Positions 3,250 through 23,207 of a stretch of 24,858 nt of DNA are shown here, piece after piece. Under the pieces are notes generated by a model, which did no database searches, had not been told where the DNA came from, and saw nothing but the letters and a program-made list of their open reading frames with translations. Origin of the DNA: a virus. The stretch spans positions 1,016-25,873 of the IMG/VR virus record IMGVR_UViG_3300029467_000015, one strand, 5' to 3'. The first letter of the stretch is position 1; every line of letters begins with the position of its first letter. Position numbers and translations under genes: made by a program.

Positions 3250-5400
3250 TTAAGCTGGTCCGTAGGGGTAGAAGGTTCCTCCGAAGACCGGAATCTGGAT
3301 CATGCCCAGGGCGTATTGCGTAACCTGGTCTTCGTTGATGTCGGCAACCTGGAAAGCATAGTCAAAGTTGACGCCGGGCTTTTCCTGGGCGAGCATGATC
3401 GGGTACACCGTTCCCGGTATGCCTGACATTTCCGCGCTGGTTAACTTGGCGTCCTGGTCGAAGTGGACATTTATCCAGACCTCACCGCTGATCATCGGGA
3501 GTTTCACCCAGGAGGATCCGGAGCCGCCGTCTCCGGTCGGGTAGAATCCCAAGAGAGAGCCGTTGAGGTAGAGAGCGCCCGGTTTGATGCGAGCATCGGT
3601 GATGTTGCCCTCTGTGTCTTTGGTCAAGCGAACTTGGAAGCCGTATTCCGGCGCAGGAGCTTCAGACCCGGTGGCAGTCGTAATCTGCTGTCCAATGGTC
3701 GGAGATTCCGGCTTGGGGTCGTAGGTCAGGTCAATTGGTTCCGGCGCTCCCTGCATGTTTTCCAACGCGGAAGAGGATTCGGAATCACGGTTGACGCGTT
3801 TCAATTCGATAAACTCATCGATTCCCAACTGAAGAGGCGCACCGTAAGACAACTCAATCACATTAGTCTGCAAGTCACGGCTTACAGTCTGCACCATGGT
3901 ATTGATGGTTTCCCATTCCGGATTGCCGCCAAGCAAGGAAACACGGCGCCCCATGTATTGCCAGTATTGAGCCCCCCCGCGAGCCGCAAAGGAGATAGAG
4001 CCGTCATAGGGAAGTTCCTGCATGGATTCCCAGACCGTCCTTGCTATGTCGGCATAAGGTATTCCGTCATTGGGCGCCTCAGAGGGGCCGTCTTCATCGT
4101 TTGACGGCTGCTCACCGTTATAAATGCCGTCAATCGGATAGGTAGCATTGGGGCGGTCGAGTGTCACCAGGTCCACGGAAAATTCCTGCCAGAAACAAGG
4201 CGTGTCTCCTCCTCCAATTACTCCGATGTTCTTAAATTTTTCTCTCCACTTGGCCGGGGCATTTTCCGGAATGGCTAGACGCTGCTTGATGGTGGTATTG
4301 CACCATTTAGGGCGCAGGGATTTTGTGTGAATCTGCCCGTCTGTAAGTTCGTATGCGGTTGCCGTGGTATCGTACCCCTTGGGTTTTTCCTCTTCTGTGC
4401 CTTCCCATGCCTTGGGAGTGACGACCCGGTCGGAATAGGTCACAAGCTGCCCTGCCGGAATGTCTTTCATCCACGGGAAATGGTGTGCCCAAAAGCTGTT
4501 GATCATGTCCGCAGCGTCAATGCGGCGCCCTTTGACAATCATCTTCTGATAAGCCAAGCTGCCGGATCTGGAAGTCTTTACGGGCTGGGGTTCGGAAGCG
4601 GAACCGCCTGACTCATTGTAATTGGAGAAATAAAAGTCAGAGGAGACGCGATAGACGATCGAATGCGGCAGCGTAGGGTCGCCGTCCGACGGGTACTTGG
4701 AAAGGTAGGAGACGCGATAGCCTGAACTGCCGGTAGATTCTGCCACAATCGCAACACAGGGGGGAACAAGGTCGCCTCGCGGTGACAGTGATACGTCTAT
4801 GCTTTTGACTGTGGCGGAGGGTTGCAGCGGCAGGGAAATAGGTTCAAGGGCGTCGTAGTCCGTGATGATGAGCTTGGGCCGTTCTCCCGTGTAGTCATAA
4901 TAACTGACCATACGCGGAGACCAGCGCCGGATGGACTGCAGCAGACTTTGAAGAGTGTCGCAGGACGCATTCCACGGTATCAACTGCTTGTCGTCTCTGA
5001 TGCGCAGCTCATAGCTGGCTGGGTGGTGCTTTGCCATGTCAAGCACGCTGGACAAAGCGCCGCTCAGGTTGACCTTGGGAATAATACCCTCTACGCCTTT
5101 ACGGGGGAAAAGCCCGAACGTCGGCTGCCATCCATTTTCCAAGGCATAGCAATTAGCGAGGTAATACCAGGGGTCGGAAAAAACAATCCTCCAGGACCGC
5201 TGGCTGCCGCTGTATACTTTTTCAATATTGGACACCAGCCCCACTAGGATGACTTGTCCGTTTTGGGAGATGGTGACGGTATCGAATTGCTTGTACGGCA
5301 AAGTTTCCCCAAGCGTCCTGACGGGGTAAACTGCCGTAATGGTGGACGTGGAGAAGCTCTGTTGATCGTGCGTGAGGCTTGATGGCTTGAGAGCCAGCAA
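3250..5400 (-). CDS. Large tail/baseplate structural protein (716 aa from TTG; possibly 725 aa from an in-frame AGG at 5427)
   Basis: Long ORF with phage-like composition, positioned after the tape-measure-like gene. The first canonical start is TTG at 5400. The in-frame upstream stretch AGG AAC CAT AAC ATC ACC ATA GAT GAC would read MNHNITIDD. Confidence 0.65.
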   Translation of the reverse strand: MLALKPSSLTHDQQSFSTSTITAVYPVRTLGETLPYKQFDTVTISQNGQVILVGLVSNIEKVYSGSQRSWRIVFSDPWYYLANCYALENGWQPTFGLFPRKGVEGIIPKVNLSGALSSVLDMAKHHPASYELRIRDDKQLIPWNASCDTLQSLLQSIRRWSPRMVSYYDYTGERPKLIITDYDALEPISLPLQPSATVKSIDVSLSPRGDLVPPCVAIVAESTGSSGYRVSYLSKYPSDGDPTLPHSIVYRVSSDFYFSNYNESGGSASEPQPVKTSRSGSLAYQKMIVKGRRIDAADMINSFWAHHFPWMKDIPAGQLVTYSDRVVTPKAWEGTEEEKPKGYDTTATAYELTDGQIHTKSLRPKWCNTTIKQRLAIPENAPAKWREKFKNIGVIGGGDTPCFWQEFSVDLVTLDRPNATYPIDGIYNGEQPSNDEDGPSEAPNDGIPYADIARTVWESMQELPYDGSISFAARGGAQYWQYMGRRVSLLGGNPEWETINTMVQTVSRDLQTNVIELSYGAPLQLGIDEFIELKRVNRDSESSSALENMQGAPEPIDLTYDPKPESPTIGQQITTATGSEAPAPEYGFQVRLTKDTEGNITDARIKPGALYLNGSLLGFYPTGDGGSGSSWVKLPMISGEVWINVHFDQDAKLTSAEMSGIPGTVYPIMLAQEKPGVNFDYAFQVADINEDQVTQYALGMIQIPVFGGTFYPYGPA

Positions 5401-5454
5401 GTCATCTATGGTGATGTTATGGTTCCTGCTGCTTGAATATGGTTAGGTTGATAT

Positions 5455-9535: not shown

Positions 9536-10066
9536 CTACAGCTTGGAATAGGCCTTCACTCCTTCCGCAATGGCTTCCGCAATGGCTTCGGGATGGTCCT
9601 TCATAAGGGCGGCATTTTCAGGATTGGTGATAAAGCCGCATTCGCACAGCACCCACGGGCAGCGCGTCCTTTTCAGGACGGCCAGCCCCGGACGGGACTG
9701 CACGGTGTTGGCCCGTCCTGGGAGCAGCCGGGCAAGAGGTTCCGCGACGCACATGGCAAGCCGGCTTCCCTTAACGCTCCCGGGATAGAAGCACACATGG
9801 GCGCCGTGAGCTTGCACATTATCCGATGAGTCACAATGCAGGGAAATCCCGAAGTCGTAGCCGCCTTCGTTGGCGGCCTTGATGGTGGCGTTCAGGTCGT
9901 CCGTGTTGTTCCGGGTCGGAAAGTCAATTACATCCACCTGGGCGCCCAGCTTTCTGAGCATAGGCGCGAGGCGTTCCGCAATCGTCGCTGCTACGGCGTG
10001 TTCTTCAAGCCTGTTTCCACGGGCTCCGGTGTTGTTGGCATGGCCTATATCAATGGCTATTTTCCT
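9536..10066 (-). CDS. N-acetylmuramoyl-L-alanine amidase (Amidase_3) endolysin, start placed at in-frame AGG 10066-10064
   Basis: The C-terminal part ISLHCDSS...CECGFITNPENAALM...AIAEGVKAY is typical Amidase_3. The family N-terminal motif KIAIDIGHANNTGARG is encoded in-frame upstream of the first ATG (9961). Between that motif and the in-frame TAA (10081-10079) there is no ATG, GTG or TTG. AAGGAG lies 7 nt upstream of the AGG. Confidence 0.8.
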   Translation of the reverse strand, partial: RKIAIDIGHANNTGARGNRLEEHAVAATIAERLAPMLRKLGAQVDVIDFPTRNNTDDLNATIKAANEGGYDFGISLHCDSSDNVQAHGAHVCFYPGSVKGSRLAMCVAEPLARLLPGRANTVQSRPGLAVLKRTRCPWVLCECGFITNPENAALMKDHPEAIAEAIAEGVKAYSKL

Positions 10067-10073
10067 GGGTATT

Positions 10074-10079
10074 CTCCTT
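10074..10079 (-). promoter_or_regulatory. Shine-Dalgarno AAGGAG of the endolysin gene
   Basis: The minus strand reads TAAAGGAGAATACCCAGGAAAATAGCC. AAGGAG is followed by 7 nt (AATACCC) and then AGG AAA ATA GCC ATT GAT. Confidence 0.6.
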
Positions 10080-10132
10080 TAATTGATTGGTTATTAATAT
10101 GTATGAACTTGTAAGAAAAACTTTACAGTTGA

Positions 10133-10384
10133 CTATTTTTCAAGCTTCCGCTCGATATTCTCTATTCTGATGGCAAGAAGCTGAATAGCCTTTGCCGTCT
10201 CTACCTGGGCCTGCGTCTGCATCGTCATCAGATCGCAAAGTCGGTCGTTGTGATGTCCCATGACATCTCCGATGTACCAGCAGGCCGCGCCACAAATGCC
10301 CAGCGAGAGCATGACGCAGGCCCAGGCGGGGAAAGCCTTGGCGAAATCGAAGAAACGTGCCGGTACTTCGGAGAGTTTGCACAT
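10133..10384 (-). CDS. Holin- or i-spanin-like small membrane protein
   Basis: 83-aa ATG ORF with one hydrophobic helix (FPAWACVMLSLGICGAACWYIG) and a C-terminal amphipathic, coiled-coil-like tail. It lies directly upstream of the endolysin. Confidence 0.45.
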   Translation of the reverse strand: MCKLSEVPARFFDFAKAFPAWACVMLSLGICGAACWYIGDVMGHHNDRLCDLMTMQTQAQVETAKAIQLLAIRIENIERKLEK

Positions 10385-10388
10385 GGTC

Positions 10389-10841
10389 TTATTTCTTGGT
10401 GGCTTGAACTACGGGCGGCGTATCCGTGGCGGGCTGGGCCTGGCTGTAGGACAGGTGGCCCGGCTCGATGATCAGGCAGGAACCGTCCTTGCAGACCTCC
10501 GTGCGGTCCGGGGTAATGTCCACGTTATGCCCGCAGCCGGAGAGGGACATTCCCAAGCCGCCAAGGATGGCCCCGGCAATAACTGCTCCGGCGGTATACA
10601 GGGCCTTTTCCCACCAGCTAGACTTGCCGGCAGCCTTAATACCGAGGTAGTCCCGGACATCCCCCAGCGCATGCCTGCCAATAATAGGCAGGGCTTGCTG
10701 CGCCAATCGCACAAACGCTGCCCGCTGCGGATCGGTTAATTCTTTCCAGGACTTCCAGCCGCCGCCGTTATCCTCGGAAACCACCTCATAAAAATCCTTG
10801 GCGATAGCCTCGGAATGATTGCATTGATCATTAGTAGTCAT
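10389..10841 (-). CDS. Membrane protein of the lysis neighbourhood
   Basis: 150-aa ATG ORF with an ATGA overlap with the upstream gene. It has a soluble N-terminal part of about 80 aa, one helix AGAVIAGAILGGLGMSLSGC containing a lipobox-like LSGC, and a Cys-containing C-terminal tail. Function is unknown. Confidence 0.5.
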   Translation of the reverse strand: MTTNDQCNHSEAIAKDFYEVVSEDNGGGWKSWKELTDPQRAAFVRLAQQALPIIGRHALGDVRDYLGIKAAGKSSWWEKALYTAGAVIAGAILGGLGMSLSGCGHNVDITPDRTEVCKDGSCLIIEPGHLSYSQAQPATDTPPVVQATKK

Positions 10842-11252: not shown

Positions 11253-13310
11253 TTATTGTGCTAATTGGTTGATTTCTACAACAGCGGCCTCGGCGTAATG
11301 GTGGCCGACAAACGCCCACACTTGCCGGGGTTGCCCGGTCGTGTTGGCCGCCAGCGTCAGGACAACCTGGCCGCCGGACCCTATTTCTTCAGAGGATTGC
11401 GTGCACCACACAGCGGCGGGGTCATGTCCGCACATGGTATCGTTCAGCACATAGATAGCTTCGGAGAGGGTGGAAGACGCCGTCAATGTCACCTCGCCGC
11501 CAGAGGCCGGAACTTCCTGCGCAGAAGCCGTTACTTCTGGAACTGGTTTAGGCGTCACACCCTCCATTACCGTGTCCTTCATGAGGCCCCAGGAATTGGT
11601 TATGCCCAGTGAGGGTACATTGTCTATCCTTATCCCTCCCATACGGAGGCCCGCCTGATAAGTCCCGCTGACTTCGTGTGCTTTGAATTTGGTTGTAAGG
11701 CATGCTGTGTTGCCGGCGCCCCAAAAGGAGGAAGCCATATCCATTACATATTGCTTGTCCACAAACAAAGCCCAGCGATTGTAAATCTCCTGGTCATCGG
11801 GGTTGGGTGGCGTCATGGCCGCGGAGACGTAGGTAAAAGCCGGAGCCAATGCCCAAACATAATGGGAATCTACCTTGAGGGGTCCATAAAACGTTCCTCT
11901 TATCAAGGCCGACTTATTGCTCCCCAGATACCCCATAGGGTAGGTAGTGATCTGATACGCCGGCACATTGTCGCCCCCTCTCGCTCCATTGACTGTATTG
12001 TTTTGAGGGTATCTGTAATTTGCATTATCCCAGGCATAATCCACCCAGTGCACAGGATGTGCATAGCAGGACGCCAGCGGATCGGCAGTCGTAGCGTACC
12101 CTTGGGCAGTGCTGCCCAAGAGGACCGACACCTTGTCAGAGCCAAGTATCCGCCAGACGCAAGCGGCAGCATATTCGTTATTTCTATTGTTGCCCATGTA
12201 ATTGGCAAATTTCCATGATCCCGTGGATTTGCCGATAACAGAAACACCCCCTGCCGCCGTCATGGTTAACACCATATCGCACAAGTCGTTATTAAATACT
12301 CCCTTCTTCAGGGAGGCGTTAGCGGTAGCAATTGCGTAGCTTGTGCTCAACGACTGGGCTTCCGCCAAGGCAGTCACCCATGACGGAATGACGGATTCCA
12401 GAAAATAATTGGTGCGGCTCCATTGGCCGGCAGCCGTCATGGTTATCATTCCCTCATAGGAAATGGCATTCTGCCCTGTGGCGGGCAGCGGCACACGGAC
12501 TCCTTCGATTGCGGTGATCGTGGCGTCGTAGGTCTGCGGCTGCGTCCAGTTATAAGAACCGTCCGGATTAACATCCCCCGTATCTCCTTTCTCGCCACGG
12601 GGCCCTTGGGGCCCCTCCGGCCCCTCGGGTCCTTGCGGGCCGGCAGGACCCTGCGGTCCGGTTTCTCCAATGTCGCCTCTTGGTCCCTGTTCTCCGGTCG
12701 CTCCCTGAGGACCTTGAGGTCCTGCGTCGCCCCTGGGACCCTGGGGGCCTTCGGGGCCGGTTTCGCCCGGTTCCCCCTGCGGGCCTGGTGGGCCTTCGGG
12801 GCCGGCGTCTCCTTTGGGGATGGTAAACGACAACAGATAAGAGCCCGCTTCCGAGCCTTTCACGGCTTCCGCTGCGGCAGGAGTGCCAGGTTCGCCGGTA
12901 GTGACCCGGTCCACCGAAAGATTGAAATTCTCGGCGTACTTCTTGGCCTGCTCCGCGTACCAGGCGGCGCTTGACGCATTATCAAGCACCACCTGCACGC
13001 ATCCGCTTCCTTCCGGCAGCTGCACGACGACCGCACCCGCTACCGCCTGCTGCTCGTCCGGCAAGTCCGGCGTCACCCGGCCTGAGGAAACAAAGCATCC
13101 ATAGAGAAGCGGGCTTTCCTCATTGCCGTCATCCATGAAGACATCGTAGGACCACATGCCCGCGGGCACCGAGGCCCACGAAATCACGCCGTTGCCCTCG
13201 TCGTCACGGGAAAAGCCGAACTCGGCGATACCCGTCTTGAGGCGAACGGCTCCGCGCAGGGTGACGCCGCCCATATCGACGGGATCCCCCTGGAAATCCA
13301 CCACGCGCAC
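11253..13310 (-). CDS. Tail fibre with a collagen-like GXY region and a BACON-like C-terminal domain
   Basis: 685 aa from GTG 13310. An in-frame AGG at 13370 would add [20 protein letters not shown]. About 26 consecutive G-X-Y triplets are present. The C-terminus [21 protein letters not shown]...[21 protein letters not shown]...VVEINQ is BACON-like. Confidence 0.75.
12573..12812 (-). repeat. Collagen-like Gly-X-Y triplet repeat coding region
   Basis: Fibre residues 167-246: [80 protein letters not shown]. Confidence 0.9.
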
Positions 13311-13417
13311 TACCAGTGACTGGTTGAGCCCCGTGACTGTCCGTATATCGTATTTGCCTGCCTGCTGCCTGGGAAAAAAAGGGGATGCGGGGGCGCGCGG
13401 CCCCCTGGTGAAACACG

Positions 13418-14068
13418 TCAGGAGCCCGGGACCGGCGTCACGTCCTGCACATTGGAGGGCGTGAACTGGTACTGGCCGCGGTAATCCATTTCGAACTCGA
13501 ACTGGGGCGAAGCAATCGCCGTGGTGTGCTCGGGGTCCTGCAGCAGGCGCAAAGCGCCATGCGCGGTTCCGACCAAATAGATCGTACCCACGTCATTCTG
13601 ATACCAGAAATGAAGATACCCTTCGATCTTGTTGTCGCCTCCGTGTCCGACGGTGGTCGATTCCTCGCCGTTGGCGGGGGCGGCTCCCAGAGCGAACGCC
13701 AGTTGGAAATATTCCGGGGACATGTCCGGCGTGGTGAACGTCAACCGCTTGCCGGTCGTGGTGTTCTTTCGCTGCTGCCGGTAGCCGAGATTGCCGCCGT
13801 AAAAGCGCGTTACTTCCCCTTCGACCTGTGTGGCGACGGATTGGAAAGCCCCCAAAAGCCCGAAACTCACCCAGGGCTGTTCAGGCCCGGCTGTCGGATC
13901 GGCGGGCGGAGCCGTGGGAGGCGTCGGAAACTGGTCCGGCCCGGTGACGTAGGAAGCTCCCCCGTCTTCGGTCACCTTGATGCCGTCGGGGAGGAAAATC
14001 GCCAGAACGCCAGTAATCTGCGGCGTGACGTTGCGGTTAGAAAAGGTGGGATCGTATGTAGTAGCCCT
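13418..14068 (-). CDS. Major-tail/tube-like protein, start placed at in-frame AGG 14068-14066
   Basis: The first canonical start is GTG 13975. The frame is open upstream and reads (AGG)[30 protein letters not shown], beginning 14 nt after the upstream stop (14085-14083). Function is inferred from position and size only. Confidence 0.5.
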
Positions 14069-15644: not shown

Positions 15645-16771
15645 TTGACGGGTAAAACGTAAGGGGTTGACAGTTCCACATTGAGGGCTCCGGCGACGTC
15701 TTCCACTTTCCTGACGTGCCCGGAGGTAATGGGATAGGTGAATTCCCCCTCTTCCTTTGGGGAAACGGGGATATACTGGCGGGAGGACGCGGCGGCCACG
15801 TCTGCGGGCCGGGCGTACCAATCACCTTCCGGCTCGGAAGCCAGACGGTCCAGCAGACGGTCCAGGTAGAGGGCCGCCAGCGTTCCGGCCACGGCTCCCC
15901 CGGCTGCCGCCAGGCTGAAGGCCTGGGCCTGGCGCAAGGGGATCTCTTCCGGGAAATCCCCGGACAGGACGTCCGCCAGTTCCGCGTCCGTGTAAGGGCG
16001 CGTGCCGTTCGGGTCCGTGTAGGCAAAGGTGGTATTGCCGTCGTTCCCGGTCTTGACGCGCACGGCGTCTTTCAGGATGCGGCGGATCTTGTTCCTGTTG
16101 GATTCCGTCACGCCTTTGGCGTTGCTTTCCAAGGTTGCGTTGAAGCTGGGGGGAGCGGGACGGACGCGCGACACGGCCAGCCCGGCCGCGCGGGCTTCTT
16201 CGGCGCCCACGGGGGCAATGTTCATGCCGGACAGGTAGTCAAAGGGCGGGTAAGGCGTGCCAAAGCGCGAAAGGCGGATCCAGATATCGGAGGCCGCCAG
16301 CGCATAGCCGACGATTTCCCCGCGGATGAAGCCGGATGATACCGCTTCCGTGGCTTCTTCTTCCAGCCCGGCCCGGGCACGGTTCCAGCGTTCGGCCCAA
16401 TAGCGCGGGTCTTCCCGCCCCTGGGAGCGGTAAAATTTGAAGGCGGCCGTGTCTTCGTCCTGCATCCAGTTATACCAGTTCCGGTAACCGTGCGCCATGG
16501 CCGCATTGGTTTCCATGACGACCTGGATGCGGAGCCAGGATGACAAATCCTGAATGCCGCCCTGCCCCGTTGCCGGCGGTCGGTAGCCCTGCTGGCGCAG
16601 GGTTTCGCGGATGGACTGCTGCGCCTCTTCATAGCTCAGGGCGCCGGAGGCGACCTTCCCCGCCTTTTCCTCAAAGTCGGACAGGATAACGCCGGGCTCC
16701 ACGCCGGACACGAAAAAGGCGCGTTCGGCGTAGTCGTTGGCGATCATCTCCATCTGGGCGGCGGTCATCAT
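15635..16771 (-). CDS. 378-aa virion-module protein with weak resemblance to Mu F / SPP1 gp7 head-morphogenesis proteins
   Basis: ATG at 16771 (MMTAAQMEMIANDY) forms an ATGA overlap with the upstream stop. The segment LRIQVVMETNAAMAHGYRNWYNW loosely resembles the conserved RTE...A.N.G region of that family. Confidence in the family assignment is low. Confidence 0.55.
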   Translation of the reverse strand: MMTAAQMEMIANDYAERAFFVSGVEPGVILSDFEEKAGKVASGALSYEEAQQSIRETLRQQGYRPPATGQGGIQDLSSWLRIQVVMETNAAMAHGYRNWYNWMQDEDTAAFKFYRSQGREDPRYWAERWNRARAGLEEEATEAVSSGFIRGEIVGYALAASDIWIRLSRFGTPYPPFDYLSGMNIAPVGAEEARAAGLAVSRVRPAPPSFNATLESNAKGVTESNRNKIRRILKDAVRVKTGNDGNTTFAYTDPNGTRPYTDAELADVLSGDFPEEIPLRQAQAFSLAAAGGAVAGTLAALYLDRLLDRLASEPEGDWYARPADVAAASSRQYIPVSPKEEGEFTYPITSGHVRKVEDVAGALNVELSTPYVLPVKWL

Positions 16772-17263: not shown

Positions 17264-18190
17264 TTAATCGCCGGTGGCCGTCGCGTCGATGCGGACGATG
17301 GCGCTGGGGTTCGTCAACTTGGTCAGCGAGTAGACGCGGTTTGTGACGAGCGTCAAGGCCGGCGTCGGCTTGTATTCAGTGATGACTTCTCGGCGAAGCT
17401 TGCCGGAAAGACCGAAGGTCTTGACGGCGGAGGCGTCGAACTGCGTCGGGGAGTCTTCCTTGTACAGGACATAGACTTCGTTTTCCATGATGGTTTTCGC
17501 GTCGCCGGAAGCGTCGCGGTACGGCATGGAGGCGATGTAAATATCCCGGATGGGCCGGATCAGAGCCATGCGAAGAAGGTCTTCGTTGAACAGGCCGACG
17601 CTGTTGAAGGAAACCACCTGACGCGCGAGCGTGTTGGAGCGAAGCAGCTGCCATGCGTTGATGCCGAAGACAATCGTGTTCGGCATGTGTCCGGTTGCGG
17701 CGTTGATGGACAGGATCGCCTGGTCCAGATCCGCCAACGGGTTTTTCTGCTGGTTGGCCCAGTCACCCATCCCGGAAGCGGCCGGAAGCTGGCTCATCAG
17801 AAGCTTGGCGCGTTCGTATTCGTACGACGTCACAAACTGGGATTCGATGAGTTTGTATTCCGCCAGGGTGATGGCCTGCGCCTTTTCCCGGTTGACGCCC
17901 AGCAAGGCGTCAGGGATGGGCAGCGTCAAGCCGTAGCCCTGAAGGGTGTCGGTTTCGTTTCTTCCGCGCAGGACGGTCTGGCGGGGAGGTTCGCCCGGTC
18001 CCACCTGGATGGGCTGGACGGTGAAGGCCGATTCCGTGTCCCAGACCTTGTACTGGAAATTCAGGTCATAGACCGGGACGATCGGAGCGATGCGGCTGAT
18101 GATGGAGTTCTCTTCGGTGTTCCCGGACCCCGCGGAATAGGAGGTCAGGACATCGGTGAACTGAACGGCGGAGCAAAATGGAGTAGCCCT
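17264..18190 (-). CDS. Major capsid protein (lambda gpE-like family), start placed at in-frame AGG 18190-18188
   Basis: Family-like segments are present: RIAPIVPVYDLNFQYKVWD, DTLQGYGLTLPIPDALLGVN and WANQQKNPLADLDQAILSINAATGHMPNTIVFGINAWQLLRSN. The frame is open from 18217, but the first ATG/GTG/TTG is GTG 18004, which would give only 246 aa and remove the first of these segments. Confidence 0.75.
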   Translation of the reverse strand, partial: RATPFCSAVQFTDVLTSYSAGSGNTEENSIISRIAPIVPVYDLNFQYKVWDTESAFTVQPIQVGPGEPPRQTVLRGRNETDTLQGYGLTLPIPDALLGVNREKAQAITLAEYKLIESQFVTSYEYERAKLLMSQLPAASGMGDWANQQKNPLADLDQAILSINAATGHMPNTIVFGINAWQLLRSNTLARQVVSFNSVGLFNEDLLRMALIRPIRDIYIASMPYRDASGDAKTIMENEVYVLYKEDSPTQFDASAVKTFGLSGKLRREVITEYKPTPALTLVTNRVYSLTKLTNPSAIVRIDATATGD

Positions 18191-18674: not shown

Positions 18675-19787
18675 TTATCGGTTGGCGGAGACGATGAAGC
18701 CTTCTTCGGTCGCTTTCTGGTAGGCGTCATAGCGCTTCATGCCGTCCTTGATCAGTTCGTTGACGCGGTTGTTGAATCCGTCAATGGATTCCTTCTTGCG
18801 GAATGGGTCAGGGGGATTCAGCGTCGCGCGGCGGTTCAGAGGCGTCCTTTTCGGCAGTTCCTTCTTTTCCTCCTGATCCGGTTTTTTGGGCGGAGTCTGG
18901 CGGTTGAGCGCACGGATAAAAGCGTTCAGCGCGGCGGGGCTTTCCCGGAGAGAGTTTTTCAGCTCTTCCCGGCGTTCTTCCGTGAATTCCTCGCGTTCTT
19001 CCTCGTCCAGCGCGTTTTCGTACGTGCTGACGGCGTCGTCCACTTCGGCGTTCACGTGGTCTTTCTCACGCTTTTCCAGCGAGAGCAGTTCATCAAGGCG
19101 TCCGAGGATCGCCCTGCTCATGTCGTCGGTGCCGTCAAATTCGACATCCAGCTTGTCAAGCAGGGAGTCGAACAGGGCCCGCTGGGCCTTGTCCATCTCC
19201 TTGGACGGATATTCTCTATCGTCGTTTTCCATATTGGTTTTCTGGGTTGTTTCCCCCTCTTCGGGGCTTTTGGGGTCGCCCCCGGCCTCGTCGGAGGCGG
19301 GGGAAGTCTGTCGGTTGACCAGAGGCCGCTTTCCCTTGATGCGCGGCCGGTTGGTCAGAGCGAAGCCGGTCAGACGCGACGGGCGGTAGACGCCGTCCGT
19401 CAAAGTCATGCCTTCGCCATATTCGGTGGATGATTGCGTGTATTCCTTGTCCTGCAGCATCTTCAGGCCGCGCGGCGTCCATTCGATGAACCCGTAGAGT
19501 TCCAGCGTGCCGGAAGGGTCGCGGTAGGTGTCCAGCCTCTTGAGCCATCCGAGGGCCCGAGTATCGCGGGAAAGGTCGTGGCTCAGGTGGTCGCCGTCGA
19601 TGAGCATGCCCGGGCCGTCAAAGGTGCGGGCGTTGAAGTCGTCCACCATGTCCCGGATCGCCTGCTCGTCGATGCGCAACACGGCGGGACCCTCGCCGTA
19701 GTCAACGTCATGGTCTCCGCTTTTCTCAACGTGGAACCAGCCGTTGGCGGGTCGGGACAGGTCATTGATTTGTTTCGTGCTGATCAT
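18675..19787 (-). CDS. Mu gpI-like prohead protease with a C-terminal scaffold-like region
   Basis: 370-aa ATG ORF. NGWFHVEKSGDH...LRIDEQAIRDMVDDFN...MLIDGDHLSH...ALGWLKRL...LYGFIEWTPRGLKMLQDKEYTQSSTEY matches the Mu-like prophage I protein pattern. The C-terminal half is E/K/R/D-rich, as in scaffolds. Confidence 0.75.
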   Translation of the reverse strand: MISTKQINDLSRPANGWFHVEKSGDHDVDYGEGPAVLRIDEQAIRDMVDDFNARTFDGPGMLIDGDHLSHDLSRDTRALGWLKRLDTYRDPSGTLELYGFIEWTPRGLKMLQDKEYTQSSTEYGEGMTLTDGVYRPSRLTGFALTNRPRIKGKRPLVNRQTSPASDEAGGDPKSPEEGETTQKTNMENDDREYPSKEMDKAQRALFDSLLDKLDVEFDGTDDMSRAILGRLDELLSLEKREKDHVNAEVDDAVSTYENALDEEEREEFTEERREELKNSLRESPAALNAFIRALNRQTPPKKPDQEEKKELPKRTPLNRRATLNPPDPFRKKESIDGFNNRVNELIKDGMKRYDAYQKATEEGFIVSANR

Positions 19788-21126
19788 CGGTAAATCCTTT
19801 CATGAGTCCGGCGTAAATCATTTGCTGAAGCTGTTCATAAGCATCGGGCGGAATGAGTGCTTTTTCCGGTTCCCTGTTGGCCGCCGCCGTCACCGGAACG
19901 GGGTCCTGCGTGTCCTCGATCGACATGCCGATCTTTTCTTCAATCTCGGTCTTCTCGGGGCGGACGCCTCCGTCGGCAAGCGCGGCGATTTCCTCGGCTT
20001 TCTGCAGCGGGGTCTGGACGGTGTCAAAAGTGATGTGGAGGCGGGCCAGCGGTTCGCCGTCTCCCAGGACAAGCGGGCTGATGGCGGCGTTAAAAGCTTC
20101 GGCGACCTTGGAACAGACCGCGGAGACGACCGAATTCCAGCTGTCCGTGTGCGCTCCCCCGGCCAGCGTGCCGGATCCTGATTCATTCAGGACGGTCAGA
20201 GTGCCGGCCATTACAAACCGCACCTGGTCCTTGTCGGACATGTTGATTCGGGATAGGAAATAGTTTTCGTTGATGTTGGAGGCTTTCAACGGTTCGGCGG
20301 TGCAGCCGGGAGGAAGCACAATGGAGGCTCCCGATTTGAGTTCCTCACAGGCCCGTTCCAGCGCGTCCATGACGGCGGCGCTCGCGTCCTTGGGCGCCGT
20401 GATGATGACCGGGGCGCTCCCGTAGCGGTCCATATGGTTGTCCCACGTAACTTTGGCGTGATTCCGCTCAAAAGAGGCGCGGGTTGCCGGAAAAAGAATG
20501 GGGTTCCGGTGCTCCATGACCACGAGCGTTTCTTCCTCTACGCTCTCGCCCGTGTCGACCCCGATGTAGCACTGGGGATTAAACTGCCATTCGTTCAGCT
20601 CTCCGGGCCGCACCCAGTATCGCTGCGGGATGAATTCAAAGCGGCGGCCCCAGGAATCTTCGATGTATTGGAGGTGGGCGTACCCGTAAAACATAGCGGA
20701 GGCCAACTGCCCAAAGGCCTGTTGAAGTCCGGTGACGGAGTGATAGAATTCTTCCAGCGCGTTCTGCTGACGCTGGGCTTCCGGGCTGTCGTCCGCGGCG
20801 TCAATCTTCCATCCCTGCATGGAGACGCTTTCAATGAGCCGGGAATAGAGCATGCCCATCAAGCCGTCCGAGTAGATGACCTCGTCCCAAATGAGCATTT
20901 GGCGGGCAAAGGCTCCACGCCGCGCTTCGTTCCGGGCGTCAATCAGGGTTTGCAGGTCGGCGCCCTGTAACGGGTCCCAATATTCGTACCATTGAGGCTG
21001 GTTAGGCTTCCGGCTCTGTTCCGTCAACGCTCGCCGGGCCAGGTCCGTTTCAAGCTCCTTGATTCTGGTCTCCTGTTGGGCTACCAGCTTCGGGGCGTTG
21101 AGGATATTTCGGACGGCGTTAAACCT
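19762..21126 (-). CDS. Portal protein (Mu gp29 / DUF935-like), start tentatively at in-frame AGG 21126-21124
   Basis: It sits between terL and the protease and is 421 aa from TTG 21027. The frame is open upstream to TGA 21213 and reads (AGG)-FNAVRNILNAPKLVAQQETRIKELETDLARRAL before the TTG. The start is uncertain. Confidence 0.65.
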   Translation of the reverse strand, partial: RFNAVRNILNAPKLVAQQETRIKELETDLARRALTEQSRKPNQPQWYEYWDPLQGADLQTLIDARNEARRGAFARQMLIWDEVIYSDGLMGMLYSRLIESVSMQGWKIDAADDSPEAQRQQNALEEFYHSVTGLQQAFGQLASAMFYGYAHLQYIEDSWGRRFEFIPQRYWVRPGELNEWQFNPQCYIGVDTGESVEEETLVVMEHRNPILFPATRASFERNHAKVTWDNHMDRYGSAPVIITAPKDASAAVMDALERACEELKSGASIVLPPGCTAEPLKASNINENYFLSRINMSDKDQVRFVMAGTLTVLNESGSGTLAGGAHTDSWNSVVSAVCSKVAEAFNAAISPLVLGDGEPLARLHITFDTVQTPLQKAEEIAALADGGVRPEKTEIEEKIGMSIEDTQDPVPVTAAANREPEKALIPPDAYEQLQQMIYAGLMKGFTDDQHETNQ

Positions 21127-21235
21127 GCGGCTTAATGATGGAAAGGGATTGGTTGCAGGGGGAGGAGTTGGACCTCCGACACGGGGACAGGAACCCCGTA
21201 TGATACCGTTTCACTACCCTGCGATTGAATACAAA

Positions 21236-21268
21236 TCAACACATATAGATATGTTGATATATTGTCAA
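21236..21268 (-). promoter_or_regulatory. AT-rich island with a consensus TTGACA and an overlapping imperfect inverted repeat
   Basis: The minus strand reads GGTTGACAATATATCAACATATCTATATGTGTTGATTTG. TTGACA is at 21268-21263. A weak -10 candidate TATGTG follows a 17-nt spacer. The dyad is TCAACATAT-ctat-ATGTGTTGA with 8 of 9 positions matching. Confidence 0.35.
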
Positions 21269-21270
21269 CC

Positions 21271-22644
21271 CTAATATCTACCGATGGCGCGTTTTTGTGC
21301 CGGATGTCTGGCATACCAAGCCCCCAGATTCCGGACAAGTCCGCTGTGCCGGCGCGCGTGCCAGGCCATGACAAGGGCGTCGGCCCGGTCGGGAGAACGA
21401 ACTCCACGCTTTGCCATGTCCTCCTTGCTCTCGATTTTGACACGCCCGATCGCGTCTGTCTGGACGCGCGGTGCGACCAGCTGTTCGATCGTGTCTTCGT
21501 CGATGTCGAGAATGAGCTCTTTTTCTTCGATGGCTCGGGCCAGGGCCCTCCATGCCTGGGCGCGCAAGTTGACAAAGGCCTGCGTGTCGTCGGACGGGAA
21601 GCCGCCCCGGTAGGAGTGCACCGGGAATCCCTCGGCCCGGAAGTCGTCAATGATGGGAAGCCCTAACCCGTCGCCATCCGCGAAGATGCGGTCGGCTGGA
21701 ATACCGAGCTCGACGGCCTTTCGGCGGAACCGTCCCCGCGCTCCGACGGTGTCCGGGTCTGCCCAGTGATCAGCGATGAAGAACCGGTTGCCGTGCCCGG
21801 CAGCAAAGACGTTTTCATCGCCTCCGGCGGCGAAGTCAAAGCCGCCGCAGGTCTCCCCAGTGTCCAAAAAGGGAGGCGGGTTGTTGAGCAGCTCCATGAG
21901 GGCGCGTCGGGAAATGACGGATTGTCCGTCAAGGTCCGTGAATTCTCCGAGGATGGCCGAACGGTAAAAGGAAGAATCTTCGCCGTATTCTTTTTTGATG
22001 CGGGCGGCCTTGCCCGGGTCGTTGATCTCAATATGAGGACAGTCCTCGTATTTGACCCGGATTTTATAGTAAAGGGAGGAATTTTTGTGGAAGCAGTCGT
22101 AGAAGGTGCCGGAATCAGCTCCAGGTGACGATGTGATGAACGCATGAAAGAGCGTGCAGCGGGAAACCGCGGTAAAGATGGGGTCCGGGATGGTCTTGGC
22201 TTCGTCGAGGACGTAAAAGACCGGGTCCACGTCGGGCGATATTTTCGGGTGCCATCCTTCCGCGCGTCCGGCGTTGTCGGTGGAGAATCCCACGGCAAAA
22301 CCTCCTTCAGGGGTACGGATTTCCGTCTTGTTGAACGTCCAGCCCGCAAAGAACGGATTGTCCATGTAGCGGCGCAGCGACGGGAAGAGCTGCTTTTCCA
22401 CTTGCATCCACGAAGAGGACGTGACGGGAACCTGTCCCCGCGGAAAACAGGTGAGAAAGTACAGGATGGCCGGCGCAATGCAGTTGCTTGTCTTGCCTGA
22501 TCCGTTGGGGGCTACCAGAGCCACGCTTTTTCCGCCCAGGGCAATCTTGCCAAGGGATAGCGCCTTGATGGCCTCCACCTGCCAGGGATAGGGATCCAGG
22601 CGGAGGATGTGGCGAAGGAAGAAGCTAACGGGGAGGTATGGCCT
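21271..22644 (-). CDS. terL: Terminase large subunit, start placed at in-frame AGG 22644-22642
   Basis: Walker A is VALVAPNGSGKT, and the C-terminus has the nuclease-type end RSPDRADALVMAW. The conserved LDPYPWQ motif that precedes Walker A is encoded upstream of the first canonical start (GTG 22578). No ATG, GTG or TTG occurs in-frame between TGA 22839 and 22578. Confidence 0.85.
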   Translation of the reverse strand, partial: RPYLPVSFFLRHILRLDPYPWQVEAIKALSLGKIALGGKSVALVAPNGSGKTSNCIAPAILYFLTCFPRGQVPVTSSSWMQVEKQLFPSLRRYMDNPFFAGWTFNKTEIRTPEGGFAVGFSTDNAGRAEGWHPKISPDVDPVFYVLDEAKTIPDPIFTAVSRCTLFHAFITSSPGADSGTFYDCFHKNSSLYYKIRVKYEDCPHIEINDPGKAARIKKEYGEDSSFYRSAILGEFTDLDGQSVISRRALMELLNNPPPFLDTGETCGGFDFAAGGDENVFAAGHGNRFFIADHWADPDTVGARGRFRRKAVELGIPADRIFADGDGLGLPIIDDFRAEGFPVHSYRGGFPSDDTQAFVNLRAQAWRALARAIEEKELILDIDEDTIEQLVAPRVQTDAIGRVKIESKEDMAKRGVRSPDRADALVMAWHARRHSGLVRNLGAWYARHPAQKRAIGRY

Positions 22645-22649
22645 GATGT

Positions 22650-23207
22650 CTAGGGATTGAGCTTGCCAGCGATGGTTTCCAGCGCGGTTTTCTCGTCTTC
22701 CTGGAGCCGGGCAAGCTGCTCGGGGTCCAGAGTGATCTTGCGTTCCAATGGAGCGCCTGGAACGCCCGCTACATCCTGCCGGACTCGGTCGCCGAATTTC
22801 TCGGGGGCGAAGCGGGCGGCCACTTTCAGCCGCGTTTCAATGGCGAGCTTCTTCGCGGCGACGGAGGCAGAGCCACATTCAGGGTCGAGCGCAACCTGAG
22901 CAGCGGCATCTGACAAAGACTGGCACTCGTCAAGCAGTGCTTCCGACTGCGCTTCCCGTGCGCGTTGAATGAGTTTGGAAAACTCCGGCTTGGTTTCACG
23001 CCAATTCCAAACCGTCCAAACCTCCGGCATGTGATCGTCCGAGCAGATGGACTTCATCGTTTCCCCAGCAGCCAGCCTGGAGGCTATCTCGGCGGCTAGT
23101 GCCTCCGTATAGAGGCTGGGCCGTCCTATTTTCTTGTTGGTGGTAGGTGATTGTTTCTTTTTCCTGCGGGTGCACCATAAGAGATTTTGCTCCCGTAAAT
23201 CAAGCAT
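22650..23207 (-). CDS. terS: Terminase small subunit (HTH type)
   Basis: 185-aa ATG ORF. IGRPSLYTEALAAEIASRLAAGETMKSICSDDHMPEVWTVWNWRETKPEFSKLIQRAREAQSEALLDE ... KLAIETRLKVAARFAPEKFGDR matches the common GRP-x-YT / ARE-Q small-terminase pattern. It lies directly upstream of terL. Confidence 0.8.
   Translation of the reverse strand: MLDLREQNLLWCTRRKKKQSPTTNKKIGRPSLYTEALAAEIASRLAAGETMKSICSDDHMPEVWTVWNWRETKPEFSKLIQRAREAQSEALLDECQSLSDAAAQVALDPECGSASVAAKKLAIETRLKVAARFAPEKFGDRVRQDVAGVPGAPLERKITLDPEQLARLQEDEKTALETIAGKLNP

Follow-up and report, generated by a model that had tools for sequence, protein, structure and literature searches.

An AGG start codon for the endolysin gene of an Akkermansia phage, and a candidate phage-encoded initiator tRNA with anticodon CCU

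The DNA analyzed here is a stretch of 24,858 nucleotides (nt) from a viral genome in IMG/VR (record IMGVR_UViG_3300029467_000015, positions 1,016 to 25,873), which we call ‘the window’. It is the late region of a temperate phage of Akkermansia muciniphila. We are concerned with its endolysin gene, which appears to begin at AGG, and with a transfer RNA (tRNA) encoded by the same phage that may be the decoder of this codon. Coordinates are window positions, and the endolysin gene comprises the following features:

9536..10066, minus strand: endolysin (Amidase_3, 176 codons), with its proposed AGG start at 10066-10064; assigned from Pfam, the solved structure 3qay, relatives, and the ratio of nonsynonymous to synonymous substitution rates (dN/dS)
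10064..10066, minus strand: proposed AGG start codon of the endolysin, aligned with the ATG of MKIAIDIGH in relatives
10074..10079, minus strand: Shine-Dalgarno (SD) sequence AAGGAG, 7 nt upstream of the AGG and overlapping the in-frame TAA at 10081-10079
10001..10042, minus strand: codons for the predicted zinc ligands His9 (10042-10040) and Glu22 (10003-10001), from a phmmer alignment to 3qay

Read on the minus strand, the beginning of the gene runs TAA (10081-10079) AGG (10078-10076) AGA ATA CCC AGG (10066-10064) AAA ATA GCC ATT GAT ATA GGC CAT (10042-10040). There is no ATG, GTG or TTG in the frame between the TAA at 10081-10079 and the ATG at 9961, which is codon 36. The initial annotation had described this arrangement—AAGGAG at 10079-10074, a spacing of 7 nt to the second AGG, and IDIGH encoded ahead of the first ATG at 9961—and direct reading of the strand and of its open reading frame (ORF) bears it out.

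The predicted protein matches the Amidase_3 profile (Pfam PF01520) with E = 8e-29 and a score of 101.3 bits, the gathering cut-off being 27; residues 3-171 span positions 1-173 of the 174 in the profile, and the domain begins at the I of KIAIDIGH. The closest solved relative is the catalytic domain of the CD27L endolysin (3qay), the N-terminus of which is MKICITVGH. In the phmmer alignment of the two, His9 falls on His9, Glu22 on Glu26 (the Glu of N-E-Y), and H77 also lies on the matching residue; His9 and Glu22 are invariant across all relatives. His9 is the His of IDIGH, proposed earlier to be a zinc ligand. In CD27L, the structure of which was described by Mayer et al. (2011), His9 and Glu26 are reportedly two of the three zinc ligands, and we assume the same ligand roles for the His/Glu/His set here. 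A protein begun at Met36 would lack two of the three predicted ligands, and so should be inactive. Like other Amidase_3 phage endolysins (CD27L, 3qay; PlyPSA, 1xov), the window protein has a full-length domain that starts M-K-I-x-I-x-x-G-H, with His/Glu/His aligned, the AGG codon standing in the place of the first residue. It differs from them in being a single domain of 176 amino acids (aa), in having no cell-wall-binding domain, and in its AGG start.

We compared the DNA of the endolysin locus in 53 IMG/VR loci and 14 genome loci. Ahead of AAA ATA GC(N) ATT GAT, 11 close relatives have the codon ATG and about 20 have AGG, and the ATG of MKIAIDIGH falls exactly on the AGG codon (relatives L005, L007-12, L017-19, L024 and L227). 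The AAGGAG is conserved in both types alike, and the AGG-type loci differ from one another in flanking polymorphisms and at downstream synonymous sites. In a neighbour-joining tree of 30 endolysin ORFs, all intact, in which the start codon was masked, ATG-type and AGG-type genes are interspersed, implying at least four switches between them. Codons 2-36 of the AGG-type genes, which lie upstream of the first canonical start, have dN 0.033 and dS 0.365, a dN/dS of 0.09; the value for the same codons of the ATG-type genes is 0.11, and for the remainder of the gene 0.15. Variable sites in this stretch of the AGG-type genes number 6, 2 and 16 at codon positions 1, 2 and 3. Neither the relaxed selection nor the disruption expected of a pseudogene upstream of the first usable start is seen there, the dN/dS of codons 2-36 being 0.09. 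Taken together, the ATG at the same codon in relatives, the interchange of ATG and AGG, and the purifying selection indicate that the region is translated and that the start is the AGG codon. These comparisons support translation of the endolysin from AGG 10066, which would give the product X-KIAIDIGH with a complete predicted zinc site. The start at the second AGG, as first proposed, therefore stands; the M of the proposed M-KIAIDIGH does not necessarily, because the first residue need not be Met.

In a protein search, many relatives of 176 or 193 aa begin MKIAIDIGH, and a series of entries of 141 and 158 aa begin at the internal Met; these shorter entries are fall-backs of the gene callers. 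The longer member of each pair (193 and 158 aa) carries a 17-residue insertion after HCDS, found in L017-L021, L025-L027 and L054 (P0003, P0006, P0013 and P0046). It occurs in both ATG-type and AGG-type genes, which indicates module shuffling inside the endolysin. In one AGG-type endolysin (L006, also L224; IMGVR_UViG_3300045988_154619), a 1-nt deletion in GATATAGGCCAT causes a frameshift; either this gene is a true pseudogene or its sequence is in error.

A tRNA scan of the window returns a single gene, some distance upstream among the late genes, and its anticodon, CCU, is the complement of AGG:

21150..21223, minus strand: tRNA, anticodon CCU, with an encoded CCA end (ARAGORN; Rfam tRNA, 51.2 bits)
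21224..21270, minus strand: region upstream of the tRNA, with TTGACA at 21268-21263, a spacer of about 17 nt and TATATG; conserved in relatives

The sequence of this tRNA, from 21223 to 21150, is CGCAGGG-UA-GUGA-AACGGUA-UCAU-A-CGGGG-UUCCUGU-CCCCG-UGUC-GGAGG-UCCAACU-CCUCC-CCCUGCA-A-CCA. It has several features typical of initiators: a C1xA72 mismatch (Rfam flags the 1:72 pair as non-standard), G2:C71, C3:G70, A73, and the pairs G29-31:C39-41 beside the anticodon loop. In E. coli tRNA-fMet, features of this kind exclude EF-Tu, direct formylation, and favor binding to the P site under the control of IF3. Among 15 distinct variants of the phage tRNA, the 20 other cloverleaf pairs are paired in 100%, 8 of them with compensatory double changes; pairs 2-7 are kept in this way, and position 1:72 is C.A in 15/15. 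A mismatch that never varies while the pairs around it compensate is one maintained by selection. The determinants of formylation are nearly as constant (G2:C71 in 14/15, with G:U in the remaining one; C3:G70 and A73 in 15/15). The three anticodon-stem G:C pairs (29-31:39-41) are present in the window copy and in 10/15 variants; departures listed by variant are A29:U41 in two and U31:G39 in two, the neighbouring G:C being kept in each, and a further variant has, beyond the three pairs, a G28:U42 wobble. All 39 copies have the anticodon CCU, and none the CAU of tRNA-fMet.

Beside two E. coli tRNAs taken from NC_000913.3, metZ (an initiator) and argW (the tRNA-Arg with anticodon CCU), the phage tRNA resembles the former. 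Its acceptor stem, CGCAGGG/CCCUGCA-A-CCA, and U20 A21 of its D loop match metZ and not argW, which has G1:C72 and A20; the Watson-Crick 1:72 pair expected of an elongator is replaced by the CxA mismatch. A20 is a major identity element for arginyl-tRNA synthetase (ArgRS) in E. coli. Of the ArgRS elements A20, C35 and U36, the phage tRNA has C35 and U36; its position 20 is U, as in metZ, and not the A of argW. These are E. coli rules, which may not be those of the Akkermansia ArgRS. As to the initiating amino acid, C35 and U36 favor ArgRS, while U20 and the CCU anticodon argue, by the same E. coli rules, against efficient recognition by ArgRS or by MetRS.

Of 39 related loci, 36 have the tRNA gene; the others are too short to include it. 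The pattern CGGGGTTNNNGTCCCCG proved too unspecific for a tRNA search of IMG/VR; a specific pattern found 39 contigs, all of this Akkermansia phage family. A survey of 1:72 pairs in the 458 tRNAs of the fetched loci, intended as a control, was noisy, with ambiguous 3' ends, and was dropped. A four-base codon–anticodon pairing, in which the C that usually precedes the AGG would pair with G37, is not supported, because loci whose tRNAs have A37 (the L199 group) still have C at -1. The TTGACA/TATATG region upstream of the gene overlaps with an imperfect palindrome, which reads ATCAACATAT..ATATGTGTTGAT in the window and CATATC..GATATG in relatives. From sequence, this region is possibly the tRNA's own regulated promoter, and the palindrome could be an operator for its expression.

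The endolysin is one of eight genes in the window that appear to begin at AGG. The other seven, which lie on the same strand, are:

22650..23165, minus strand: terminase small subunit; AGG at 23165-23163, AGG in 37/37 relatives; Pfam Sf6_terminase, PHROG 1482
21271..22644, minus strand: terminase large subunit (TerL); AGG at 22644-22642, AGG in 35/35 relatives; PHROG 2
19762..21126, minus strand: portal protein; AGG at 21126-21124, AGG in 38/38 relatives; Pfam Portal_Mu
17264..18190, minus strand: major head protein; AGG at 18190-18188, AGG in 38 relatives and ATG in L214; PHROG 1005
13418..14068, minus strand: 216-aa late protein; AGG at 14068-14066, AGG in 34/34 relatives
11253..13370, minus strand: collagen-like tail fibre; AGG at 13370-13368, AGG in 33/33 relatives; PHROG tail fibre, Pfam Collagen
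3250..5427, minus strand: 725-aa late protein; probable AGG start at 5427-5425, AGG in 21/21 relatives checked

When AGG is allowed, the 26 minus-strand genes of the window tile compactly with 8 AGG and 18 ATG starts, and no GTG or TTG is required. Sequence comparison with relatives places each AGG at a boundary between noncoding and coding DNA. Across the comparisons, the number of relatives with AGG is 34-35 for TerL, 36-38 for the portal protein, 32-34 for the 216-aa protein and 31-33 for the tail fibre. Ahead of the terminase small subunit, the groups share no homologous sequence, and nearly all relatives have in-frame stops there. The AGG of the large subunit follows the preceding stop codon by 5-8 nt; the divergent L214, which is outside the 35/35 alignment, has an ATG one codon away. 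That of the portal protein lies 23 nt past the CCA end of the tRNA, after a spacer that varies and has indels, and conserved coding runs from the AGG on. In the major head protein, residue 13 falls on position 14 of the PHROG 1005 profile, the first canonical codon is 62 codons downstream, and distant homologues (P0121, P0126 and P0168) have their initial Met exactly at the AGG position. The 216-aa gene has its AGG about 15 nt past the upstream TAA, and relatives do not keep the in-frame ATC that immediately precedes it. The AGG of the tail fibre, at 13370, comes directly after a hairpin and T-run with indels; changes downstream of it are almost all synonymous, and the GTG at 13310 of the window is GTC, ATC or ATT in relatives. 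An in-frame stop lies 8-9 codons upstream of the AGG of the 725-aa gene.

Other candidate placements were rejected. An AGG at 13406, first considered for the tail fibre, lies within the conserved hairpin and the frame downstream of it is not conserved, making AGG 13370 the true boundary. Some long ORFs were misleading: the genes at 16771, 15644, 14982, 14474 and 14280 have ordinary ATG starts that overlap the previous stop, and add no non-canonical start. SD sequences are absent from most of the AGG-start genes, as from most genes of the window, and the endolysin is exceptional in this respect. AGG accounts for 36/374 (9.6%) of the internal Arg codons of the window genes. In the matrix of start codons the endolysin scores 10 AGG against 12 ATG, and it is the only polymorphic start in the family; elsewhere, AGG sites remain AGG and ATG sites remain ATG.

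The same arrangement is found in complete genomes. Akkermansia phage DTMo-2021a (CP084202.1, complete), harboured by A. muciniphila NBRC 114322, has the same tRNA and AGG sites, and its endolysin has ATG. A complete A. muciniphila genome (CP048438.1) carries a prophage with the same tRNA and AGG sites, and its automatic annotation shows shortened genes with gaps between them (TerL 435 aa, portal 397, major head protein 278, tail fibre 573). Upstream, in the recombination and early genes of this prophage, starts are tight and canonical, and AGG is first used at the terminase small subunit. As a control we examined Moulinsart, an unrelated Akkermansia phage. It has no tRNA, and ATG begins 21/23 of its plus-strand genes, including all eight late genes inspected. 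AGG initiation thus belongs to the tRNA-bearing family and not to the host.

The AGG start, then, turns out to be part of what looks, from these comparisons, like a family-wide system that has no natural precedent in the searchable literature. Most probably, the phage encodes tRNA(CCU) as a dedicated initiator for AGG, and the endolysin starting at 10066 is one of its clients. As we picture it, this one tRNA (21223-21150, minus strand) would pair with AGG start codons through its CCU anticodon, and its body—C1xA72, G2:C71, C3:G70, A73 and the G:C pairs—would send it to the P site and not to EF-Tu. Presumably aminoacylated and formylated, it would start translation at the AGG of eight late genes: both terminases, the portal, the major head protein, the 216-aa protein, the tail fibre, the 725-aa protein and the endolysin. 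The endolysin would then begin X-KIAIDIGH, the major head protein X-ATPFCSAVQFTD or X-ANLFYSAVQFTD, and the portal protein X-FNAV(K/R)NILNAPK. Translation of the late genes, and lysis, would be coupled to expression of the phage tRNA. The free interchange of ATG and AGG at the endolysin, with the other sites fixed, agrees with full function of AGG as a start once cells are infected, and the fixed, gene-specific pattern elsewhere suggests that the choice of codon is under selection.

Two extensions of this proposal can be graded separately. It is likely, if less firmly so, that we are seeing a natural orthogonal initiator that makes AGG a start codon private to the phage; assembly and lysis proteins would possibly be translated only once the tRNA is made, and their first residue may not be (formyl)methionine. 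That AGG acts as a translational lock or timer, tying the terminase, capsid, tail and sometimes the lysis proteins to tRNA expression, is a tentative idea, for which we would put the chances at somewhat under even. The earlier suggestion that the timing of lysis depends on the start codon of the endolysin is plausible.

Several observations pull the other way. The tRNA is present with ATG-type and AGG-type endolysins alike, so that co-occurrence within the family is uninformative for the endolysin. Five of the fifteen tRNA variants are without one anticodon-stem G:C pair (A29:U41 or U31:G39). The A11:U24 pair of initiators is U11:A24 in all 15 variants, and the T loop is often UCCAA, not UUCAA, with C55 in many copies. 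The likeness to an initiator was drawn from tRNAs of E. coli. A scan for consensus promoters did not flag the TTGACA region upstream of the tRNA. And in the 725-aa gene, a conserved TTG (5400) lies 9 codons downstream of the AGG and is a possible alternative start, which makes this case less secure than the others.

Of the competing explanations, the one that fares best is that the host initiator tRNA(CAU) reads AGG inefficiently as a near-cognate codon, helped by a strong SD, and that the tRNA(CCU) is an elongator for rare AGG Arg codons. The endolysin does have a perfect AAGGAG at an ideal spacing, phage tRNAs are commonly read as codon supplements, AGG is present internally in the phage genes, and in E. 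coli many non-canonical codons initiate detectably (bioRxiv 10.1101/063800). We nevertheless judge it improbable. Most of the other genes that start with AGG have no SD, the major head protein among them. In E. coli, codons beyond AUG, GUG, UUG, AUA, AUC, AUU and CUG start with the native initiator at roughly 0.01-1% of the level of AUG (bioRxiv 10.1101/063800), too low to supply the major capsid protein, and IF3 specifically suppresses AGG starts (PMC6868393). AGG, at 9.6% of internal Arg codons, offers a weak reason for a supplementary elongator, the ArgRS element A20 is absent from the phage tRNA, and in bacteria the C1xA72 mismatch, invariant here, keeps a tRNA from serving as an elongator, as is well established for tRNAfMet. 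Weak near-cognate use of AGG rescued by a strong SD is probably not what occurs at the endolysin; the phage encodes an initiator-type tRNA(CCU) 11 kb away.

It is very unlikely that the AGG-type endolysin is a pseudogene, formed by loss of the start codon in decaying prophages. ATG becomes AGG by a single T-to-G change, gene callers do place the endolysin at 141 aa, and one relative (L006) has the 1-nt deletion described above. About 20 contigs, however, carry the AGG-type gene intact, the tree has AGG-type genes in several of its clades, and a dN/dS of 0.09 prevails across precisely the stretch that would be untranslated in a pseudogene. Genes that the phage cannot dispense with—major head protein, portal, terminase large subunit—have invariant AGG starts as well. 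Equally hard to credit is a start at some other codon of the endolysin, be it ATA 10060, ATT 10054, ATA 10072 or ATG 9961. Weak initiation is known for ATA and ATT, which lie 13 and 19 nt from the SD and had been named as alternatives at the outset. Both fall away, however, because the ATG of the relatives coincides with the AGG codon and not with either of them, and because the ATG-type genes have this ATA and this ATT as well, so that neither is there to compensate for a missing ATG. A start at 9961 would drop His9 and Glu22 and conflicts with the purifying selection upstream. Finally, although AGG is one base away from ATG, the chance of a sequencing or assembly error at the start codon is negligible, given the same base in about 20 independent metagenomic contigs and a metagenome-assembled genome, with differing flanking polymorphisms, and an AGG start in seven other genes.

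A dedicated initiator tRNA(CCU) would be without known parallel in nature, and has close ones in the laboratory. To our knowledge, all natural bacterial start codons are read by a single initiator, tRNA-fMet(CAU). In the full-text literature, of which most subscription journals lay outside the search, we found no natural initiator tRNA with an anticodon other than CAU, in phages or elsewhere, and no description of AGG starts in Akkermansia phages or prophages. With bacterial tRNA-fMet (metZ/W/V of E. coli), the phage tRNA shares C1xA72, G2:C71, C3:G70, A73, CCA, the run of G:C pairs next to the anticodon loop, and U20. It differs in having CCU and not CAU, U11:A24, a 7-nt D loop, a 4-nt variable loop, G37 and often C55, and in that its gene is phage-encoded and lies within a late operon.

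Phage suppressor tRNAs, for their part, recode stop codons in the late and lysis genes of crAss-like, Lak and other gut phages. There, as here, a phage tRNA alters the meaning of a codon, and the codons concerned cluster in late structural and lysis genes, a concentration that suggests translational gating of the lytic program. Those systems act on stop codons during elongation, however, and the one in the window on a start codon, by means of an initiator-type tRNA. Regulatory non-canonical starts are known in bacteria as well, such as the AUU of infC. The GTC of sigR is another (PMC5472188). In these too, a non-AUG start sets or controls expression, but the codons are near-cognate, are read weakly by tRNAfMet under the control of IF3, and occur in single genes with no dedicated tRNA. 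Closest in kind are the initiators engineered in E. coli (amber, i-tRNA(AAC) and i-tRNA(CCU); bioRxiv 10.64898/2026.04.16.719103 and 10.1101/2021.05.25.445580), which likewise combine an initiator body with an altered anticodon and a non-AUG start. Among these, i-tRNA(CCU)/AGG was the most robust non-canonical pair tested and the best across strains, and in one strain it exceeded AUG (bioRxiv 10.64898/2026.04.16.719103). Whereas the engineered initiators are laboratory derivatives of tRNAfMet, the phage pair appears to be natural, conserved in a family, and used on essential virion genes.

Some neighbouring features deserve mention. Directly upstream of the endolysin, at 10133-10841 (minus strand), are two small genes. 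One encodes a protein of 150 aa with a transmembrane stretch and a lipobox-like LSGC, the other a protein of 83 aa in which a coiled coil follows a single transmembrane segment. Pfam and PHROG gave no match for either; by their predicted features, the pair look like a lysis cassette of the spanin or holin type. Between the 216-aa and tail-fibre genes, a G+C-rich hairpin of the form GGGGGC-loop-GCCCCC (13375-13406, minus strand) shows compensatory changes among relatives, and a T-run of variable length follows it by about 9 nt. Standing immediately ahead of the tail-fibre gene, it resembles a terminator or attenuator; the consensus promoter and terminator scan did not report it. A conserved leader, TTT(A)CAAGCA(G/T)C, stands directly before the AGG at 5427 and at 14068, and is common to these two AGG genes only. 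An ATG at 23207, in frame 14 codons upstream of the AGG of the terminase small subunit, occurs only in the window phage and L219, the others having stops; being lineage-specific, it leads the automatic annotation of the window to the wrong start for this gene. In L192, L201, L195, L203 and L207, a pair of elements resembling TTGAC(N) and TATAGA/TATCTT lies very near the AGG of the terminase small subunit. The late transcript in these phages could be leaderless, or nearly so, in which case codon–anticodon pairing would be the main start signal.

For annotation the consequences are immediate. Standard gene callers give the endolysin 141 aa where it should have 176, and the major capsid protein 246-278 aa where it should have 307-308; they also cut short the portal, terminase large subunit and tail fibre. 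Public Akkermansia assemblies are affected in their hundreds. Truncated endolysins (141 aa) and major capsid proteins (246 or 278 aa) from hundreds of assemblies stand in the public protein databases (P0009, P0011, P0122, P0135, P0136, P0153 and others), likely because gene callers do not allow an AGG start. Two prophages of A. muciniphila YL44 can be induced with mitomycin and yield virions (PMC8008629); this strain would be a ready experimental system if either of them belongs to this family. Should our reading of the tRNA be true, this would be the first natural expansion of the start codons, achieved by a virus-encoded initiator with another anticodon, and would challenge a near-universal rule. 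It would be the counterpart, at initiation, of the recoding of stop codons by phages, and would provide a naturally evolved orthogonal initiation pair usable in synthetic biology. In the phages themselves, the late and lysis genes would be silent without the phage tRNA: a translational lock, in prophages of a medically important gut bacterium.

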